Below the pieces are notes generated by a model, which was given only the letters and a program-made list of their open reading frames with translations, made no database searches and had not been told where the DNA came from. DNA of 63,294 bases, filler included. It is 8 parts of 8 records of this genome, joined end to end, with 100 filler letters (N's around TTAATTAATTAA, not from the genome) between each part and the next. Parts side by side here need not be neighbours in the genome. Positions count along the whole stretch, not along the records: positions 57,902 to 63,294 come from SRR31147125_66939; 7 more parts are not named here. One strand, given 5' to 3'. Position 1 is the stretch's first letter. Every line of letters starts with the position of its first letter. Shown here piece after piece: positions 14,047 through 63,294 of this stretch. The translations under genes were made by a program, and so were the position numbers.

Positions 14047-15757
14047 TTTTTCTTTTCCTCTTTATTTATATATTTTTTAACAGTACGTCGATCCAGGCCG
14101 GTTTTGCGGGCAACCGCTTCATATGTGCCGTGGACCTCGTACAGATACCTGCAATATCCGGATAACAGCTCTGCTGTATTGAGCGCACCGGTTTCAATAT
14201 CATGAACCCATCGCTCAAAAGGTTGTAATTGCTTGTAATCTTCTTGATCATGTTCTCGACAGCTGCCATTTTCACTGTGCCCATCTCGACCATGATCCCC
14301 AGCACCAGCATGGTCACGATCTCCCTCAAGAGCACGATCATGGCCATGCCGAATTTGCCCGGCATGGTTGACATTGGCATCACCGGAATGCTCACCGATG
14401 AAAGACGCCCCGTTTGATCGCCCTTCAGGTTGCGAGGCATTTAAATATCCAGTGGCATCGACCTGTTTCAGCCGGGGATGTCCCTCGTAACTTCGACGCA
14501 AAATGATCCGTTTGACGCACTGTTCCAGTTCCCGGACATTCCCCGGCCAGTGATAATCCTTTCCCGGTTGTCTGTCAATAATCCGAAGAAGCTTTTCAAC
14601 CAGTGCGTCTGATCGTCGACCCAGGATCCGCTCCACGGTGAATGAGAGAAGATCCATAAGTTCTTGGGGGTTTTGTTGAATCCTCAATCGGAGGGGCGGC
14701 ACCTCGAACATATCCGAACACAATCGATAATAAAAATCGTCTCGAAATACGTTTCCCGCCACAATATCTTTCATGGGACGATTGGTGGCGGCGATGATTC
14801 TCCCCGAAACCGAGACTGAGCATGGCTTCCTACGGGAGTGAAAATCCGCTCTTGAAGCACATGGAGCAACTTGATCTGCACATGCCCCGGTACCTCACCG
14901 ATTTCATCGAGAAAAATGGAGCCATGGCTGCTGCAGTGCTCGAACACCCCCTTGTGATCCTCCACTGCCCCGGTAAAGGCCCCTTTCTTATGCCCGAACA
15001 GCTCCGACTCTAAAAGCGTTTCCGGAAACTGGGAAAGATTGATGGGAATAAACGCTTTGGTAAAGCTCTCTTTAAAGCACCCTTTTTTCTCATCAAAGGG
15101 GATGTATCCGCTTCTGCCGATGGCCATGGCCGCAGTTCCCTTTCCCGTGCCGGTCTCTCCGACAATCAACGTGGAAAAATCCTCCATCCGGTTCCACAGC
15201 ACTTTGTCGTAAAGCTGGATATCATTGGTAAAGACATTGTTCCATAAATGGCGTTTGAGCTCTTTCATACAAGGGCTGGCGCCCACAAGAAACTTGGAGA
15301 TAAAAAAGAATGCACGGCGCAACTGATATGAAAACGAAAAATAGTGGAGAAAAAGGCTCTCCGGAATCCCCCGCCGGTGAAGGATGGCCATGGCCTCTTC
15401 AGCAAAGGATACAGGTACTGACACCTCCCCGGATTTAAGTTGCTCCATGATAAGCCGGTCGAATCGATCCCGGAATTTATGAAAAATATCGAAAAGAAAC
15501 ACCACCTGGATGATTTCACGATCCCTGCCGTGGAACGCCGCCACTGTGGCCCGCCCGTCTCTCTCCAGCTGTCTGATTCTGGCATCCACCTCTTGGATGC
15601 AGCGATCGGCACTCTCTCTTCTCGGAACATCGGGAAAGAGTCCGGCGATCTTCCGATCCAACTTCTCCCGAAGTTCGCCAAATGGATTGGCAAACGCGGC
15701 ATGGTAGACCGTCCTGAAAAATCGTTTCTCTTCACTGTTCAGCGATTTCGTTTTCAA
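14019..15757 (-). CDS. Sigma54-dependent transcriptional activator (frameshift near 14803)
   Basis: GETGTGK, GAFTGA, FLDEIG, WPGNVREL and C-terminal Fis-type HTH. Confidence 0.9.
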
Positions 15758-15940: not shown

Positions 15941-16040
15941 NNNNNNNNNNNNNNNNNNNNNNNNNNNNNNNNNNNNNNNNNNNNTTAATTAATTAANNNN
16001 NNNNNNNNNNNNNNNNNNNNNNNNNNNNNNNNNNNNNNNN
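15941..16040. other. Artificial contig linker
   Basis: N44-TTAATTAATTAA-N44, with stops in all six frames. Confidence 0.99.
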
Positions 16041-26112: not shown

Positions 26113-26212
26113 NNNNNNNNNNNNNNNNNNNNNNNNNNNNNNNNNNNNNNNNNNNNTTAATTAATTAANNNNNNNNNNNNNNNNNNNNNNNNNNNNNNNN
26201 NNNNNNNNNNNN
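26113..26212. other. Artificial contig linker
   Basis: N44-TTAATTAATTAA-N44. Confidence 0.99.
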
Positions 26213-32963: not shown

Positions 32964-33063
32964 NNNNNNNNNNNNNNNNNNNNNNNNNNNNNNNNNNNNN
33001 NNNNNNNTTAATTAATTAANNNNNNNNNNNNNNNNNNNNNNNNNNNNNNNNNNNNNNNNNNNN
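32964..33063. other. Artificial contig linker
   Basis: N44-TTAATTAATTAA-N44. Confidence 0.99.
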
Positions 33064-38734: not shown

Positions 38735-38834
38735 NNNNNNNNNNNNNNNNNNNNNNNNNNNNNNNNNNNNNNNNNNNNTTAATTAATTAANNNNNNNNNN
38801 NNNNNNNNNNNNNNNNNNNNNNNNNNNNNNNNNN
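38735..38834. other. Artificial contig linker
   Basis: N44-TTAATTAATTAA-N44. Confidence 0.99.
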
Positions 38835-44608: not shown

Positions 44609-44708
44609 NNNNNNNNNNNNNNNNNNNNNNNNNNNNNNNNNNNNNNNNNNNNTTAATTAATTAANNNNNNNNNNNNNNNNNNNNNNNNNNNNNNNNNNNN
44701 NNNNNNNN
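44609..44708. other. Artificial contig linker
   Basis: N44-TTAATTAATTAA-N44. Confidence 0.99.
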
Positions 44709-50907: not shown

Positions 50908-51007
50908 NNNNNNNNNNNNNNNNNNNNNNNNNNNNNNNNNNNNNNNNNNNNTTAATTAATTAANNNNNNNNNNNNNNNNNNNNNNNNNNNNNNNNNNNNN
51001 NNNNNNN
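50908..51007. other. Artificial contig linker
   Basis: N44-TTAATTAATTAA-N44. Confidence 0.99.
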
Positions 51008-57801: not shown

Positions 57802-57901
57802 NNNNNNNNNNNNNNNNNNNNNNNNNNNNNNNNNNNNNNNNNNNNTTAATTAATTAANNNNNNNNNNNNNNNNNNNNNNNNNNNNNNNNNNNNNNNNNNN
57901 N
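57802..57901. other. Artificial contig linker
   Basis: N44-TTAATTAATTAA-N44. Confidence 0.99.
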
Positions 57902-57902
57902 T

Positions 57903-58916
57903 TTTTGTAGTGTAAATTTTAATAAAAGTAGTATTTCTTTTACAGAAGCAAAGTTTATCGAAGGCGATGTTTCCTTTCTTGGTACAAATTTTGATAAAAC
58001 AAAATTTATAAAAAGTAATGTTACTTTTACACTCACTAAATCAACTGAAGTAAATATTTCTTTTGAAAGATCAAGATTTAAAGAAGGAAATATTTCTTTT
58101 CAAAAATCAGAGTTAGGAAAAGGAAAAGTTTCTTTTCAAAAAGCAAAGGTAGAGGATGTAATGTTTTTTCTAACAAATCTCCTTTCTATTAGTGATTTTA
58201 GTTTTAAGGAATGTAATAAATTATCAATAATGAATTGCGTTATTGATGGTACATTAGACTTGCAAAGTAAGATTAACATACTTCAATTAAAAAATGTAAA
58301 AAACCTAGGCAAAATATATCACGATTGGAATGAACATAATCTAAAACAAGCAACTTATAATCAAGAAGACGAAATAATTTATCTTGAAAAAGCAAAACAA
58401 TTTCGATTGCTCAAAGAAAAATTTAGTAACATTGGTCAATATGATGATGAGGATTGTGCATACTTTGAATTCAAACGATGTATGCGTTTATCGAAGAAAC
58501 TTGGAGAGGGAAAAGAGGAGGAAAAGTTTAGGTGGCTTAGATCACCGTTTAGAAAACTAATATCTTTTATCCAGTATATTATCTTTGAAAAAATAGGCGG
58601 TTACGGAACTAAGCCACGAAATGTGTTTGTGACTATGCTCATAACGGTCTCAATATTTGCATTGATTTACATGTTTGTTCCTTACCTAACCTTTGAGCAA
58701 GGCATTAGTGATGCATCAGGTAACGAACTCATTACGACTATTCAGTCTTTCACGAATGCAATTTATTATAGTGGAATAACATTCTTAACAGTAGGTTACG
58801 GAGATATTTCCCCAGTTAGTACAGCTGCAAAACTTTTATCTGTAACAGAGGGTTTTATGGGGATTTTCCTCATGTCCTACTTTACAGTTGCGTTTGTTAG
58901 GAAGTTGTTGAGATGA
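57903..58916 (+). CDS. Pentapeptide-repeat protein with C-terminal 2TM potassium-channel domain, 5'-truncated
   Basis: Open from 57903 with repeated [IV]SFxx[AS]xF units; TVGYGD selectivity filter. Confidence 0.88.
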   Translation, partial: FCSVNFNKSSISFTEAKFIEGDVSFLGTNFDKTKFIKSNVTFTLTKSTEVNISFERSRFKEGNISFQKSELGKGKVSFQKAKVEDVMFFLTNLLSISDFSFKECNKLSIMNCVIDGTLDLQSKINILQLKNVKNLGKIYHDWNEHNLKQATYNQEDEIIYLEKAKQFRLLKEKFSNIGQYDDEDCAYFEFKRCMRLSKKLGEGKEEEKFRWLRSPFRKLISFIQYIIFEKIGGYGTKPRNVFVTMLITVSIFALIYMFVPYLTFEQGISDASGNELITTIQSFTNAIYYSGITFLTVGYGDISPVSTAAKLLSVTEGFMGIFLMSYFTVAFVRKLLR

Positions 58917-58944
58917 TAATTTGATTTAAGTTGTTGATAAATAG

Positions 58945-58992
58945 AAAATTACTATAAGGATGTGTAATTGTACACATCCTTATAGTAATTTT
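58945..58992. terminator. 22-bp-arm perfect inverted repeat between convergent genes
   Basis: AAAATTACTATAAGGATGTGTA-ATTG-TACACATCCTTATAGTAATTTT. Confidence 0.75.
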
Positions 58993-59013
58993 GAAATTTC
59001 TACTTCCTAAAAA

Positions 59014-59208
59014 CTATTTGTCAAAATGGAATAGAATATTACCATCTTCGTTATCATATGTGTCTTGAATTTCTTGAGGGTTACCAGAAATCTTCTTTTT
59101 TTTAATTTCTTTCTTACCATCACTTCCAACGTGTGTTTCAACACATGTCCATTTTTCCTTTCCCGGTGCCTTTTCTTTGTCAAAGCACACTACACTAATT
59201 ACTGCCAT
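59014..59208 (-). CDS. Hypothetical 64-aa protein
   Basis: AAGGAGG RBS; upstream TTGACT-17-GATAAT promoter (59340-59312). Confidence 0.7.
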   Translation of the reverse strand: MAVISVVCFDKEKAPGKEKWTCVETHVGSDGKKEIKKKKISGNPQEIQDTYDNEDGNILFHFDK

Positions 59209-59338
59209 TTAATTCCCTCCTTTTTATATTGTGTCTAAAATAATATATGCAAAATTATAATTTTTCCTTTTTAAAATGTTTGGCAATCCTCCCTTCTTAA
59301 ATTCCTCACAAATTATCCTCCCCGATAAATGATAAGTC

Positions 59339-59405
59339 AAAAATAAAAAATGCAGAGCAAGGCTCCGGAACCTTCTCTGCGGCGGGGTCGATAACCGTCG
59401 TTATC
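59339..59405 (-). ncRNA. Candidate structured small RNA or attenuator
   Basis: GC-rich island with two hairpins (59390-59405 and 59352-59380) ending in a U-rich tract on the minus strand. Confidence 0.4.
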
Positions 59406-59534
59406 AAAAAATAACACTAAATCAAATTAACTATTAATTTGACTTAAGTTTACAAAATAAAAAATATTTAGCTAATTTGAAATTTTATGGTATATTTTTG
59501 TAGAGGTTTACTTGATTTAAGGGAGGAAATAAAA

Positions 59535-60725
59535 ATGACAAAAGATATTTTTAATGAAGTTGAAATTGTAGAGATGAATGATAAGTCTCTTGATTTTTCT
59601 TTATATGAATCATTAGTGCAAGGTGAATTTTTGTATTTAATTCGAAAAGAGCGATTTGAAGAATACAATAAGCAGTTTGAAGAATTATATTATCAAACTA
59701 GAGATATTAATGCTCATATTTCATATGATTATTATCAAAGTAAAGTATACGATATTATGCTTGAAAATAAGGGGAAGAAATTCAAATTAAAACATGAAAT
59801 AGGTAAGCATGTTTCTGGTTTAGAAGAAAATGAATATATTATTTATAAGCAAATATATGGATTGAGATTTGAAGAGGAAATAGATAGAATATCTCTAGAA
59901 AAATTTGAAATTATATCCTATAAAAAAAATAAAGGCGAAATTGATTTACATTGTAACTTTTTATCTCATCCAGCTTTGATGCCTGATGAAGATAGTTATT
60001 TCATTTCGGTAAAGATATCTAGTAAAGAAAGTTCAAAAGCTAGTGAAATAGCGAATGAAGAGTTTGAAAATTTCAAGTGTTTTTTTAGAGTAATGTTAAA
60101 TAGCCCTTTAGCTAATCTATCTTTTGGATTTGTGCCACAAGGGAGAAAATATAACAGAACTTATTGTTTTGGAAATGGATGTGTTCTAGAATCAGTTAAA
60201 ACAGAAAATATCAAGTATAATGTCAAACTTGATAATGAATTTTTTCAAAAAAATATGAACAGACATTATAGCAAATTACTAAAGATATTATGTAAAACAA
60301 ATCAAAATGAAATAGAAAGTAGAATTATTAAATCTCTAAGGTGGTTAAGTGATTCCCTGTTTGAGGAAGAGCTTCAAATGAAGTTTTTAAAAGGGATGAT
60401 AGCGTTTGAGGTATTATTTACATTTAGCGAAAAAGGTTATTTGGTAAATCCTGGAATTGCCAATCAAATTTCTGAGACTACAGCTTTTGTAATTGGCGAA
60501 AATTCTGCTGAAAGGTTAGAAGTAGAAAAGGGAATGAAAAAACTATATGGAACGCGTAGTAGCATTACACATAGTGGTAAGAACGAAATAAAAGATGAAG
60601 AATATCAACTGCTTTTCAAATATGCATGCAATGCATTAATTTTGACAATTGAGGAAAAGTTTAAAGTTGATTCGGTTAAAGAGTTTTATAATGTTATTAA
60701 AACTATGAAATATAAAGTAGAGTAA
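59535..60725 (+). CDS. ApeA-like HEPN domain protein (putative RNase / Abi effector)
   Basis: GGAGG RBS; C-terminal FL..MIAFE.LF..KKLYGTRSSITHSG with R-X4-H at 60555-60572. Confidence 0.8.
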   Translation: MTKDIFNEVEIVEMNDKSLDFSLYESLVQGEFLYLIRKERFEEYNKQFEELYYQTRDINAHISYDYYQSKVYDIMLENKGKKFKLKHEIGKHVSGLEENEYIIYKQIYGLRFEEEIDRISLEKFEIISYKKNKGEIDLHCNFLSHPALMPDEDSYFISVKISSKESSKASEIANEEFENFKCFFRVMLNSPLANLSFGFVPQGRKYNRTYCFGNGCVLESVKTENIKYNVKLDNEFFQKNMNRHYSKLLKILCKTNQNEIESRIIKSLRWLSDSLFEEELQMKFLKGMIAFEVLFTFSEKGYLVNPGIANQISETTAFVIGENSAERLEVEKGMKKLYGTRSSITHSGKNEIKDEEYQLLFKYACNALILTIEEKFKVDSVKEFYNVIKTMKYKVE

Positions 60726-60734
60726 GGAGGCAAA

Positions 60735-61133
60735 TTGAAGAGAAAAGTTATTAAAGTTATTATTTTTTTAGCAATCAGTATTTTTGTATTTTCTGATAAT
60801 AAAATGAATTATGACTATTCAACGGAAAAAACATTAAGAGATTCAAACTATACAGATTGGATTTTTGGAGGTAAATATCCACCTATTTTTCAATTAGATA
60901 ATGATGCTGATTTTATAGAATCAATTAATTTAGCTTTGAAATCTATTAATCTACCTGAAATAAAAAGAGTTGTAAAAGAAAAAGAAGAAATTACAGGAAG
61001 TCGTTGGGATAGAGGGATATATGAATGGCCAGATTATGAACTTGGAATACTTCAAATTGAAAGAACAACAAGTAGTGATAAATCATTTAATTACTATAAT
61101 GCAATATGGAAAATATCTTTACAAACAAAATGA
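60735..61133 (+). CDS. Hypothetical exported protein
   Basis: AAGGAGG RBS, TTG start, basic-then-hydrophobic signal peptide. Confidence 0.75.
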   Translation: MKRKVIKVIIFLAISIFVFSDNKMNYDYSTEKTLRDSNYTDWIFGGKYPPIFQLDNDADFIESINLALKSINLPEIKRVVKEKEEITGSRWDRGIYEWPDYELGILQIERTTSSDKSFNYYNAIWKISLQTK

Positions 61134-61136
61134 CTT

Positions 61137-61164
61137 AAAACCACGACTAACCTCGTGGTTTTTT
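61137..61164 (+). terminator. Rho-independent terminator
   Basis: AAAACCACGA-CTAACC-TCGTGGTTTTTT. Confidence 0.8.
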
Positions 61165-61218
61165 CACGTATTACATCCTATAATTTTAATTACTCTACAA
61201 AAAGTACAATAAAAAAAC

Positions 61219-61263
61219 TTGACATGTTAGTCACATATGCTGTATAGTTTGTATGTGACTAAC
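61219..61263 (+). promoter_or_regulatory. Sigma70 promoter overlapped by a 12-bp-arm operator
   Basis: TTGACA-18-TATAGT; GTTAGTCACATA (61226-37) and TATGTGACTAAC (61252-63). Confidence 0.8.
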
Positions 61264-61276
61264 GGGGAGGCACATA

Positions 61277-61450
61277 ATGGAAAAAAGAGAACTAAATGTT
61301 TCTTTTTATAAGGCTGGAAATGGTGTTGCAACGAGAATTAATCTTCCTAAAACTTGGGTTAACAAACTTAATGTGACAGAAAATGACAGAAAAGTTATTG
61401 TTGAATTTGATGAAGAAAAAGAAATAATAACAATTTGTAAGAAGAAATAA
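61277..61450 (+). CDS. 57-aa AbrB/MazE/SpoVT-like DNA-binding protein (not in the ORF track)
   Basis: GGAGG RBS; MEKRELNVSFYKAGNGVATRINLPKTWVNKLNVTENDRKVIVEFDEEKEIITICKKK matches the swapped-hairpin pattern (R.I.LPK.W...L.....V). Confidence 0.8.
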   Translation: MEKRELNVSFYKAGNGVATRINLPKTWVNKLNVTENDRKVIVEFDEEKEIITICKKK

Positions 61451-61514
61451 AAAGTGCCCCTGAACTAGTCGGAACCAGAACAAGGGCAAGCATGTTAAAA
61501 TAACATACCGTGAC
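61445..61514 (-). ncRNA. Predicted counter-transcribed antisense RNA of about 70 nt
   Basis: Minus-strand TTGAAT-17-TAAAAT promoter with extended TG (61549-61521); terminator TGCCCTTG..CAGGGGCA followed by a U tract. Confidence 0.6.
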
Positions 61515-61570
61515 AAGTATATTTTAACATGCTTGCCTTAAAAATTCAATATTTTAAGGAGGAATACGGC

Positions 61571-61699
61571 ATGAATATGAAGTTTTTAAAAAACGGATGG
61601 ATTGAAGTTACTGTCAAAGGACTATCAGGAAAATTTTTAGTTGAAACACCAGAACTAGCACAAGAAATTGCATGGAAGCTAGGGGGTGGCATGGCATGA
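61571..61699 (+). CDS. 42-aa leader ORF coupled to the antirepressor (not in the ORF track)
   Basis: AAGGAGG RBS; MNMKFLKNGWIEVTVKGLSGKFLVETPELAQEIAWKLGGGMA*; ATGA overlap at 61696-61699. Confidence 0.7.
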   Translation: MNMKFLKNGWIEVTVKGLSGKFLVETPELAQEIAWKLGGGMA

Positions 61700-62298
61700 T
61701 GGATTTAGTAGTTCAAGAAAAAGGAAATGATAGAGTTGTATCCGCGAGAGATTTATATGAGTTTTTAGAAGTAAAAAGTAAATTTGCGGATTGGATTAAG
61801 AGGAGATTATTAAAATATCAATATGCTAAAGAAAATGTAGATTACTCAATTATTTTTATCGCTTCTCAAAATAGAGAAGCGATAAAAGGTGGTCAAAATA
61901 AAAAGGATTATATTTTGAAATTAGATCTAGCCAAGCATATTTGTATGATGGAAGATACAGAAAAAGGTTGGCAAGCTAGACAAATATTTATTGAAGTTGA
62001 AAAAAAGTATAATGAGAAACTTCAACAAGAATTAGAAGAGAGTAGAGATGAACTTGAAACTATTTCCGAAAGTAAAGGAGACAATACTGTTGAAGCTACC
62101 CTTATAGAAATAGGAAGATTGGAAGCAAAAATTGGTAGAGAGTTATCTATTTTGAAAAGAATGTATGCAGAGATAGGAGTTTTCTCTGAAAAGAAAATTG
62201 ATTGGATAAAGCAATTAGGATTCAAGACAGACAAAATTAAGAGAGCTGTCATGAATGGAGAACCGTATGTGATGCAGTGCTTGGATGAAAAAGAGTAA
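61696..62298 (+). CDS. Phage antirepressor, AntA/AntB family
   Basis: VSARDLYEFLEVKSKFADWIK..ENVDY..DYILKLDLAKHICM..KG.QAR..FI. Confidence 0.9.
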   Translation: MMDLVVQEKGNDRVVSARDLYEFLEVKSKFADWIKRRLLKYQYAKENVDYSIIFIASQNREAIKGGQNKKDYILKLDLAKHICMMEDTEKGWQARQIFIEVEKKYNEKLQQELEESRDELETISESKGDNTVEATLIEIGRLEAKIGRELSILKRMYAEIGVFSEKKIDWIKQLGFKTDKIKRAVMNGEPYVMQCLDEKE

Positions 62299-62303
62299 AT
62301 TTG

Positions 62304-62327
62304 AGAGCCAAATTATTTCGGCTCTTT
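62304..62327 (+). repeat. Terminator-like hairpin, copy 1 of a 24-bp direct repeat
   Basis: AGAGCCAAATTATTTCGGCTCTTT, 23/24 identical to 63132-63155. Confidence 0.8.
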
Positions 62328-62386
62328 GTTTTGAGATATATCAAAAATATGGTATAATCTATATTATTAAATGGAGGCATAAACAT

Positions 62387-62906
62387 TTGGAAAATCAACA
62401 GTTTATAGATATTATTATAGATGAACTAACTCCCTGTTTAATTGATAGCGAAACAGGAGAAGTATTAGATACAGAGATAGAATCAATTAAAGTAAAAAAG
62501 ATAGATATTATATCTAAGTTTCAATTTGATTGGCTAAAAATTCAAAATGAGGGAGCAAAAAATTTTTGCTCTTAAATTGAAAGGTTTAAAGGAAATAGAA
62601 GGACTTATTGCGTATAATATAGATGAAAGTAGTAATGGAATTGTAATTCGATTAGTCGAATCGACTAGAAAAAATATTGGAAAACAAGGTAAATATAAAG
62701 GTGTTGGAGGACATTTGTTTGCTTTTGCCTGCAAACAAGCTAAAGAACTTAATTATGATTGCGTTTATTTTGTTGCTAAGACTAGATTAAAAGAACATTA
62801 TCAAAAAACTCTTGGAGCAGAAGTAGTTTTCGGCGATACTATGATTATAGAGGAAGAATCATTTGAGTCTTTGATAAAAAAATATTATGAAGAGGAGGAA
62901 TGTTAA
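62387..62906 (+). CDS. GNAT-fold acetyltransferase-like protein (frameshift at A6T5 near 62560)
   Basis: TGnTATAAT promoter (62350-58), GGAGG RBS, TTG start; KYKGVGGHLF acetyl-CoA motif-A-like segment and HYQKTLG motif-B-like segment. Confidence 0.7.
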
Positions 62907-63119
62907 ATGTTAAAGAGAGATATTAAAAAAGATATTGCTGCTTGGAATAAAATTGATGAAATTTCTCAAGGAATTTATGTGATTCCTCAAAAGAGTAATG
63001 TCAAAATGGGAGAAGTAAGAAAATACTGCAAACTCCACAATAAAAAGTATTCCGAACTTACAGATGCGGAATGGGAAAATTTTACAACTAATGCAGGAAT
63101 GTTAGTTTGTGCTAAATAG
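62907..63119 (+). CDS. Hypothetical 70-aa protein, candidate partner or antitoxin
   Basis: Starts directly after the GNAT stop codon; GAGGAGG RBS. Confidence 0.75.
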   Translation: MLKRDIKKDIAAWNKIDEISQGIYVIPQKSNVKMGEVRKYCKLHNKKYSELTDAEWENFTTNAGMLVCAK

Positions 63120-63131
63120 AAAAATTATTTA

Positions 63132-63157
63132 AGAGCCGAATTATTTCGGCTCTTTTT
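63132..63157 (+). repeat. Terminator hairpin, copy 2 of the 24-bp direct repeat
   Basis: AGAGCCGAATTATTTCGGCTCTTTTT. Confidence 0.85.
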
Positions 63158-63223
63158 ATATACAACTTGCTAACTCTTTACAAATATGTTATCATTACAA
63201 AAACTAAATTAGAGGTGAAACTA

Positions 63224-63294
63224 ATGATTACTAATGAAGATATAGAGAGAAAAATGAAAGTAAGAAACAAGTTTTTGGGGGCACATGTAAGTGC
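63224..63294 (+). CDS. Start of a small hypothetical protein (truncated by window end)
   Basis: TTGCTA-17-TATCAT promoter (63167-63195), GAGGTG RBS, MITNEDIERKMKVRNKFLGAHVS. Confidence 0.6.
   Translation, partial: MITNEDIERKMKVRNKFLGAHVS

Follow-up and report, generated by a model that had tools for sequence, protein, structure and literature searches.

Within a 63,294-nt stretch of DNA (hereafter the window, along which positions are counted), the last piece carries a compact operon that extends from 61219 to about 62333 and combines a 57-amino-acid (aa) AbrB-fold protein, a predicted antisense RNA, a 42-aa open reading frame (ORF) and a gene for an AntA-domain protein. We hold, with moderate confidence, that this is a self-contained mobile-element operon of a type found in Fusobacteria, probably belonging to a prophage, in which an Ant-class gene is kept under a repressor lock and an antisense lock. 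That the four parts form one terminator-flanked unit is supported, and the double lock on the Ant-class gene is, at the level of sequence, largely supported.

The mechanism that we propose would work as follows. As a first lock, the 57-aa protein would bind 12-bp half-sites around its own -10 element and so limit transcription of the whole operon. As a second lock, a convergent promoter in the spacer behind the repressor gene would give rise to a ~67-nt RNA that ends in a terminator next to the repressor stop codon and would be fully complementary to the first half of the 120-nt spacer. In the free mRNA a long hairpin would hold an anti-Shine-Dalgarno (anti-SD) sequence together with an upstream partner, so that the 42-aa ORF would have an open ribosome site; once the antisense RNA has paired, the upstream partner would no longer be available, and the anti-SD would shut the ribosome site. 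Translation of AntA would drop together with that of the 42-aa ORF, because the AntA start overlaps the stop of that ORF. Thus, repressor would be made while Ant is off, and a burst of Ant would be expected only when both regulators are scarce (e.g., just after cell entry).

The operon and its AbrB-fold protein

The operon is headed by a sigma-70-type promoter on the plus strand (-35 TTGACA at 61219-61224, 18-nt spacer, -10 TATAGT at 61243-61248; 11 of 12 matches), the -10 of which is flanked by a perfect, operator-like inverted repeat with 12-nt arms at 61226-61237 and 61252-61263, set 14 nt apart. A TTGACA-type -35 occupies the same position at related loci (see below), where the repeat recurs with at most one mismatch in 16 out of 17 cases (L031 has two mismatches). 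In 14 of these 17 loci it begins -1 to 4 nt from the -35 and flanks the -10; the best inverted repeat of L025 and L028 is placed further from the promoter. When compared across loci, the arms retain a common core and diverge in their inner halves, as expected for operators of diverged relatives. We presume, from this arrangement, that the palindrome is the binding site of the 57-aa protein.

On its left side the unit is delimited by a terminator-like hairpin (61137-61162; 10 pairs, T-runs on both sides) that closes the preceding, co-directional unit (a 132-aa ORF, 60735-61133), and on its right side, 3' of AntA, by a terminator-like plus-strand hairpin with a T-rich tail (62304-62333) that was read from the sequence. 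Neither the latter nor the terminator of the antisense RNA figures in the output of our terminator scan, since its loop limit was set at 8 nt; the scan picked up a hairpin near-identical to the right-hand one at 63131-63154.

The first gene (61277-61450, plus strand, ribosome site at ~61264-61270) encodes the 57-aa protein, the presumed autorepressor. It matches phrog_2329, a family without assigned function, at E 2.3e-17, and its homologues amount to 97 representative clusters at E <= 0.001. The AF2 model (built on an alignment of 47 homologues; predicted local distance difference test score, pLDDT, of 92) displays a strand-strand-helix-strand-strand topology. When the best Foldseek rows were realigned with VIA-align, the top 24 were all AbrB, SpoVT, MazE, VapB or archaeal AbrB-like proteins (Z 5.0-5.8, root-mean-square deviation 1.6-2.6 Å over 44-52 residues, identity 12-23%), and the family profile matched the AbrB N-domain in the PDB (E 0.003). 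Considering that the protein stops after the last strand of the fold, it appears to be a bare DNA-binding domain. We infer that it autorepresses the operon promoter, a reading that gains weight because ribbon-helix-helix genes replace the AbrB-like gene at sister loci. As an observation apart, five larger proteins (P0010, P0022, P0024, P0083, P0092; 224 to 1886 aa) contain the AbrB-like domain of this family 4 to 9 times over.

A preliminary description of this DNA had already pointed out the promoter with its surrounding 12-bp-arm palindrome and the AbrB-like character of the 57-aa ORF. Both promoter and palindrome lie where it placed them, and the fold model, the VIA-align rows and the AbrB N-domain profile match agree with the identity it proposed. 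Its notion of a front end built from an AbrB-fold repressor holds for the fold, but has to be widened, as this protein is interchangeable with ribbon-helix-helix repressors at sister loci.

The predicted antisense RNA and the mRNA leader

In the spacer, a minus-strand promoter (-35 TTGAAT at 61549-61544, 17-nt spacer, -10 TAAAAT ending at 61521; 9 of 12 matches, with an extended TG) is predicted to drive an RNA of ~67 nt, running from 61514 to 61448. It would be composed of a 5-nt 5' tail, a first stem-loop (SL1, 61489-61509), a terminator stem-loop (SL2, 61455-61488) and a U-run (61448-61454), which shares bases with the stop codon of the repressor gene. The predicted RNA folds at -27 kcal/mol (z -5.65), and none of 200 shuffles was as good. 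Promoter-like sites are common in this DNA (23 in 2.7 kb, as against 14.0 +/- 4.2 in shuffles), hence the minus-strand promoter of the window is by itself not significant, and it is the conservation at related loci that carries weight. A strict pattern (TTG plus three bases, 16-18 nt, and a TA...T hexamer) was found at the homologous minus-strand place in 15 of the 17 loci, and the remaining two (L015 and L016) combine a weak -35 with an extended -10. In the minus-strand alignment (A4) conservation is concentrated in the two promoter hexamers, with 17 nt between them, and in the bases transcribed first, while the rest varies.

For the quantitative RNA work we made use of 16 representative loci, the near-identical L016, L017, L021, L022, L029 and L032 having been dropped. 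All 16 predicted antisense RNAs share one design (61-70 nt; a 3-6-nt tail, a first hairpin with a loop of 3-6 nt, a long terminator hairpin and a U-run), with z-scores from -3.4 to -7.9. The terminator hairpin, in which 45 of the 232 pairs are G-U, is more stable as minus strand at every locus (mean difference 8.1 kcal/mol), and so is the first hairpin at 15 of them, which shows that selection acted on the structure as part of an RNA of the minus strand. A covariance model built on the antisense promoter plus RNA (R1) recovered a single match in the window (61449-61550, minus strand, 68.9 bits), and the Rfam scan returned no family at the gathering threshold (best rli48, with 27.4 bits against 100). 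Taken on sequence evidence, the antisense RNA is supported by its conserved promoter, by hairpins whose stability favours one strand, and by covariation.

Within the loop region of SL2 (~61460-61470), and at the same place in other loci, an AGTC-type motif resembles the operator half-site. On average, the half-site of a locus scores 6.11 of 8 against its own spacer and 5.77 for other loci (permutation fraction 0.021, 18 loci), a weak indication that the motif may be a third operator-like binding site.

On the plus strand, the spacer can fold into a long leader hairpin (61483-61539) in which a perfect 18-nt repeat (61485-61502 and 61520-61537) is prolonged by two more pairs, to a total of 20. 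Its right arm holds the antisense -10, which lies outside the antisense RNA, and consequently both arms exist together only in the mRNA. RNAalifold recovered an equivalent helix in all 16 loci, with the antisense -10 region paired to part of the first hairpin. In this helix 91.1% of the cells are paired, in comparison with 80.0% in shuffles, and 10 of 14 pairs show double changes (0 of 500 shuffles reached the observed value in either case); controls with slid partners were paired to 35-50%.

Beyond this hairpin, an anti-SD (61536-61543, plus strand) can pair with 61552-61559, a stretch that overlaps the ribosome site of the 42-aa ORF (61557-61562), and a C/U-rich stretch able to pair with the ribosome site of the next ORF is present at every locus. 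We modelled the switch as the energy needed to open the ribosome site, once for the free leader and once for a leader whose antisense target was forced to be single-stranded (as a stand-in for the duplex), and as control the segment from the RNA start to the ribosome site was shuffled 100 times per locus, conserving mononucleotide composition only. With the target blocked, the opening cost rose by 2.75 kcal/mol on average, versus -0.58 in shuffles; the free state did not differ from its control (4.28 vs 4.10), whereas the bound state did (7.03 vs 3.51). The rise exceeded 0.5 kcal/mol in 12 of 16 loci, and in 12 of 16 it was reached by at most 5% of the shuffles. In the window itself the cost went from 1.2 to 5.2 kcal/mol, a rise that none of 100 shuffles reached. 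The model suggests that the antisense RNA closes the ribosome site indirectly, through the conserved anti-SD. Two other devices were considered for the spacer and set aside: attenuation by a plus-strand terminator (rejected, as no U-run follows either the long leader hairpin or the anti-SD hairpin) and a plus-strand promoter from which the 42-aa ORF would be transcribed separately (in the window no candidate exceeds 9 of 12 matches, and inspection of other loci showed no conserved -35).

The 42-aa ORF (61571-61699, plus strand) ends in an ATGA overlap with the start of the AntA gene at 61696. Five cassette members share nine invariant columns in this small protein, its profile finds 31 clusters (mostly of 41-43 aa), and in all five members seen its stop overlaps or abuts the start of the next gene, which makes translational coupling plausible. 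Other cassettes have an unrelated family of 84-97 aa in the same position, or no ORF at all; neither small family has a match in Pfam or PHROGs. The AntA-domain protein itself (61696-62298, plus strand, 200 aa) matches PF08346 at E 2.1e-23 and phrog_5817 at E 2.8e-31. That it acts on a phage repressor is assumed here from the family name only. The next gene was Ant-class in all 14 AbrB-type cassette loci scanned, the domains seen being AntA, Bro-N with KilAC, KilA-N, Rha (with or without ORF6C) and P22_AR_N.

In this part of the operon the earlier proposals needed some amendment. The 18-bp-arm repeat of the spacer sits at the place given for it, and the equivalent helix covaries over the 16 loci. 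The minus-strand promoter and the RNA of about 70 nt retain their coordinates and turn out to be conserved across loci, with the qualification that a 9 of 12 match is insufficient alone. The 'leader ORF' is indeed a 42-aa ORF with an ATGA overlap into AntA, but it is not merely a leader, since it encodes a conserved protein family of 41-43 aa.

Related loci, genomic setting and competing readings

Through the AbrB-like protein we fetched 35 loci (from 3 phage records, 2 genomes, 7 viral contigs and 23 metagenomes), and inspection of their flanks revealed the full cassette in 27, one locus that ends at the stop codon, and seven without the cassette. The 28 cassette loci that were compared contain 20 distinct spacers and a recurrent layout: a sigma-70-type promoter with an inverted repeat at its -10, an AbrB-fold protein of 56-58 aa, a spacer of ~120 nt in which a convergent promoter and a terminator delimit a predicted RNA of 61-70 nt, a small ORF, and a gene of the Ant/Bro/KilA/Rha type. 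The conserved synteny and the spacer covariation that the preliminary description proposed to look for in homologous loci were both found. The seven loci without the cassette are Clostridioides difficile phages and other more distant homologues, in which the gene follows a small membrane-protein gene or has other genes directly after it. In the phages phiCDKH01 and phiCD24-1 (L001 and L002; 3333-3677) the homologue lies directly 3' of a 55-aa gene (annotated in phiCD24-1 as a two-helix membrane protein), the pair is located between the integrase and the lysis genes, and the antisense element is absent. Fusobacteriota genomes yielded additional copies, two of them in singular arrangements: L044 has two AbrB-type cassettes in tandem, ~240 nt apart (reverse strand, 615-788 and 1026-1202), the first with a cargo stub only, and L043 has a cassette with a frameshifted repressor gene.

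The profile of the AbrB-like protein found members in 59 of 190 Fusobacteriota species genomes (at most five per genome), and the named relatives are all Fusobacteriota (Fusobacterium species, the F. necrophorum phage phiFN37, F. gastrosuis and, for the 42-aa protein, Ilyobacter polytropus). An integrase is encoded two genes later in two loci and a small terminase subunit in one, by which we judge that those cassette copies lie in prophages.

The covariance model yielded 50 matches in 36 of 151 Fusobacteriota genomes, and 31 of the 50 matches abut an AbrB-like gene on the opposite strand (coordinates were compared by hand from two tables). From the 19 matches without such a neighbour we fetched 12. 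Upstream of the spacer, L061 and L067 have an RHH_1 (CopG-family) gene above the Pfam cut-off, L064 and L066 a ribbon-helix-helix-like ORF below it, L060 a divergent AbrB-like gene (hhalign probability 96%), and L068 probably another divergent AbrB-like gene, judged by eye only. L070 and L071 have only a promoter upstream and a 40-aa ORF downstream. The last four (L062, L063, L065 and L069) have no small ORF upstream and a 2-hydroxyacid dehydrogenase gene downstream; in these, the full element (promoter, two hairpins, U-run and anti-SD complement, at ~1480-1640) stands before a conserved gene of 356 aa. The fact that the same spacer is accompanied by ribbon-helix-helix repressors, or by none, means that the RNA part is constant and the protein lock exchangeable. 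The cargo of L060 (reverse strand, ORF from 1560) is not Ant-class, exceeds 480 aa and has a signal-like N-terminus.

As to the genomic setting, the window is made up of at least eight separate contigs, chained by seven linkers (15941-16040, 26113-26212, 32964-33063, 38735-38834, 44609-44708, 50908-51007 and 57802-57901), each consisting of 44 N, a 12-nt all-frame stop spacer and another 44 N. The pieces being unrelated contigs, gene neighbourhood across the linkers is meaningless and the Bacteroidales-like neighbours are uninformative on the host of the cassette. For the same reason, the AT-rich host invoked previously cannot be claimed. The piece with the cassette (57902-63294) has a G+C content of 29%, in comparison with 35-53% for the others, on which sugar-acid genes look Bacteroidales-like (UxuA is 70-72% identical to named proteins and 93% to unnamed ones). 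When the cassette contig was compared with Fusobacteriota genomes at the DNA level, most of the similarity fell on the promoter and the AbrB gene (~66-77% identity); one match (G096) continues through the spacer, and the remaining ones are short and weak. A search of the phage collection with 59400-63294 returned a single short match, to phiCDKH01, and seven proteins of the window had no exact match in the protein collection. The gene that comes first on the contig specifies a potassium-channel domain (Ion_trans_2; 57902-58916) and is preceded by repetitive coding-like sequence that reaches the contig start, by which the gene may be truncated.

Contigs from two sequencing runs differ from the window. 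A 256-nt contig of run X2 (depth 2) joins 61019 straight to 62266 and omits 1246 nt, so that the 132-aa ORF loses its end, the cassette is missing altogether and little of AntA is left; its junction is a weak hint that the cassette represents an insertion or deletion between related elements. Run X1 is the probable source of this DNA, and the last piece of the window corresponds there to one contig of 5556 nt whose end falls at 63294; in comparison with the window, this contig has an additional TTT after 60639, an additional A after 61210 (in the A-run before the -35) and one base less at 62557 (also in an A-run). By reading of the frames, this last change would fuse the ORFs 62387-62575 and 62547-62906 into one gene of ~170 aa.

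A number of points weigh against the double lock on a prophage Ant gene as we have set it out. The antisense transcript, together with its start and its end, is a prediction; none of the sequencing runs matched to this DNA is recorded as RNA, and the antisense promoter of the window attains only 9 of 12 matches, of a kind that is common in this AT-rich DNA. The 57-aa protein remains below the Pfam cut-off for MazE_antitoxin (E 5.6e-4; 20.2 bits vs 24.7), its model had no Foldseek match in the PDB at E <= 0.001, and its fold matches reach Z values of only 5-6. The switch model has no clear effect in 4 of 16 loci, several loci have a ribosome site that is shut before any antisense RNA binds, the shuffles of the control keep mononucleotide composition only, and the duplex is treated simply as unpaired bases. 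Moreover, the loci are related, so that their counts are not independent events and overstate independence; the cassette contig (~5.5 kb) contains neither an integrase nor a structural phage gene, and a prophage origin is thus not supported by this copy. Finally, the presence of the spacer element before a 2-hydroxyacid dehydrogenase gene, with no small repressor, in 4 of the 12 further loci indicates that it is not tied to the control of Ant.

This last point leads to a broader reading, which we put forward only tentatively, as a possibility less probable than not. The spacer would be a portable riboregulator family of Fusobacteria, in which a cis-antisense RNA gene is fused to a leader that can adopt either of two folds, with interchangeable small repressors in front and, behind it, cargo as diverse as five Ant-class domain families, a large protein that looks secreted and, in four species, a chromosomal gene for a 2-hydroxyacid dehydrogenase. 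As part of the same reading, the fate of the ribosome site would be decided during transcription, and the AGTC-type motif might serve as a third binding site that links the protein and RNA locks. If true, the element would be a general gene-silencing cassette and not solely a device of phage immunity.

We think it rather unlikely that the module is built as described but the RNA acts by RNase III cleavage of a 65-bp duplex, or that convergent transcription as such hampers read-through into the Ant genes. Long duplexes are substrates of RNase III, and cleavage would separate a stable repressor message from an unstable Ant message. Such modes of action would sit well with a complementarity that is complete over ~65 nt, with an antisense RNA that falls short of the ribosome site, with two promoters that face each other ~300 nt apart, and with the loci in which the switch model is without effect or the site closed anyway. 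Against them stand a covarying leader hairpin, which neither would by itself require, the conservation of the anti-SD and its two alternative partners, and a rise in opening energy that beats shuffles in 12 of 16 loci; the mechanisms are not exclusive.

Less probable by far is a pair resembling toxin-antitoxin systems, in which the AbrB-fold protein, as antitoxin, would bind a harmful Ant/KilA-type protein, and the antisense RNA would be an added safeguard. The AbrB, MazE and VapB folds are typical of antitoxins, and the operon, apparently autoregulated, follows the antitoxin-first order. The 57-aa protein, however, ends without a C-terminal toxin-binding tail, the two genes are 120 nt apart and usually have another ORF between them, and the cargo falls into at least five domain families, all of which one small binder is unlikely to fit. 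Pairs of a repressor and a Bro/Ant protein are noted as toxin-antitoxin-like, and some Ant-domain proteins as toxic, by Makarova and colleagues (PMC2701414), who nonetheless judge the pair to be regulatory and not a true toxin-antitoxin system.

We give very little credit to the idea that there is no antisense RNA, the hairpin after the stop codon simply terminating the message and the minus-strand promoter being a chance match. It is true that the RNA was predicted from sequence alone and that sites like its promoter are frequent in the window (23 vs 14), but the minus-strand form of the hairpin is by far the more stable one at all 16 loci and is the one with the U-run, no columns of the spacer are better conserved than those of the -35, the 17-nt spacing and the -10, and the covariance model finds the element in about a quarter of the Fusobacteriota genomes.

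The least credible alternative is a type I system in the manner of SymE/SymR, with the AbrB-fold protein as toxin and an antisense RNA at the 3' end of its message as antitoxin (Gram-positive type I pairs often overlap at their 3' ends): although the depositors annotated the phiFN37 homologue as 'toxin SymE', a label that reflects the shared fold, no SymE family is among the Pfam matches at E <= 0.1 and phrog_2329 is without assigned function, a palindromic operator belongs to the gene itself, whose ribosome site is strong and open, the RNA overlaps neither the coding region nor the 5' end but lies beyond the stop codon, ribbon-helix-helix repressors take the place of the protein in the same cassette, and the C. 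difficile phage homologues lack the antisense element.

Comparison with known systems

We know of no member of the AbrB/MazE/SpoVT group in a cassette that joins a repressor, an antisense RNA and an ant gene. Searches of the literature, on AbrB proteins, antirepressors and antisense RNAs as well as on prophages and Fusobacterium, did not bring up a cassette of this kind, in agreement with the preliminary description, to which no example of this composition was known either. PMC11005410 has no passage on prophage antisense RNAs, and the phiCDKH01 paper (supplements aside) is silent on the AbrB-like gene.

With SymE/SymR of Escherichia coli the cassette shares the combination of an AbrB/MazE-like protein and a cis-antisense RNA. 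PMC1891008 describes SymE as a MazE/AbrB-like protein under antisense-RNA control, with SymR overlapping the 5' end of symE, and symE as controlled by LexA. In the cassette, by contrast, the RNA lies beyond the stop codon, turned towards the downstream genes, and the protein is provided with an operator of its own. In size (~55 aa) and topology (strand-strand-helix-strand-strand) the 57-aa protein is similar to C68 (pSSVx) and C56 (pSSVi), AbrB-type regulators of archaeal virus-plasmids.

In the copB-copA-tap-repA system of R1 (the replicon, not our covariance model) and in c4-icd-ant of P1, an antisense RNA acts on a small upstream ORF that is translationally coupled to the regulated gene, and the role ascribed to both tap and icd is chiefly that of coupling. 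The way in which the 42-aa ORF overlaps AntA resembles such an arrangement; unlike tap and icd, the 42-aa ORF belongs to a conserved protein family, and is absent or replaced in other cassettes.

A closer parallel is copG-RNAII-repB of pMV158, for which PMC5717011 and PMC4485353 describe an autorepressor, CopG, that is cotranscribed with repB and acts together with the short antisense RNAII on the intergenic region. Common to both would be an autorepressor cotranscribed with its target, an intergenic antisense RNA, and a burst of expression on entering a repressor-free cell. The two differ in that the target is an AntA-domain protein and not a Rep, that CopG is a ribbon-helix-helix protein, and that RNAII (one hairpin and a 17-nt tail) inhibits repB translation, while the predicted RNA has two hairpins and a tail of 3-6 nt. 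Hence, the cassette would work alike without being a member of the same group.

The closest layout is that of arc-sar-ant in phage P22. In the annotated P22 record, arc (14861-15022, 53 aa) has its operator inside the promoter and is followed by sar on the opposite strand (15021-15090, 70 nt), with the sar terminator over the arc stop and the sar promoter inside ant, which starts at 15091 and is followed by a terminator. The window has an operator in the promoter, a small repressor gene in first place, and the same order and orientation at nearly the same sizes, along with a convergent antisense RNA of ~70 nt (predicted in our case) whose terminator overlaps the repressor stop. Furthermore, sister loci use ribbon-helix-helix repressors, and the cargo of L006 has a P22_AR_N domain. 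There are, however, several differences. The repressor of the window has an AbrB fold, whereas Arc is a ribbon-helix-helix protein; the spacer measures ~120 nt and not 68; a small protein gene is usually inserted before ant; and the AntA family is distinct from P22 Ant. No mnt-like divergent repressor was found, as upstream of the promoter there is no divergent ORF of at least 25 aa with a family match. Sar extends to the base before the ant start, whereas the RNA of the window is predicted to start at 61514, so that the overlap stops ~43 nt before the ribosome site, which makes direct masking in the manner of sar impossible. The antisense promoter lies upstream of the ribosome site instead of inside ant, and a conserved anti-SD is present in its stead. 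The P22 double-lock analogy drawn earlier thus holds for the layout, and fails for the direct cover of the ribosome site, for the ribbon-helix-helix fold and for Mnt.

Fusobacteria are medically important, and the control of their prophages is almost unstudied. The conserved candidate cassette would bring together an RNA family absent from Rfam, two families of unnamed small proteins and, for an AbrB-fold protein of minimal size, a new role, and its compact control DNA (~350 bp) could possibly serve as a tight expression switch in Fusobacterium genetics. In evolutionary terms it would be a case of convergence, with P22-type logic rebuilt from unrelated parts in a distant phylum, where the protein lock can be swapped and the RNA lock is kept. 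Judged from sequence and folding models, we see in it a Fusobacteria variant resembling P22 immI, with an AbrB-fold repressor (ribbon-helix-helix at sister loci), an antisense RNA family not described before and an indirect mode of action that would rely on an anti-SD.

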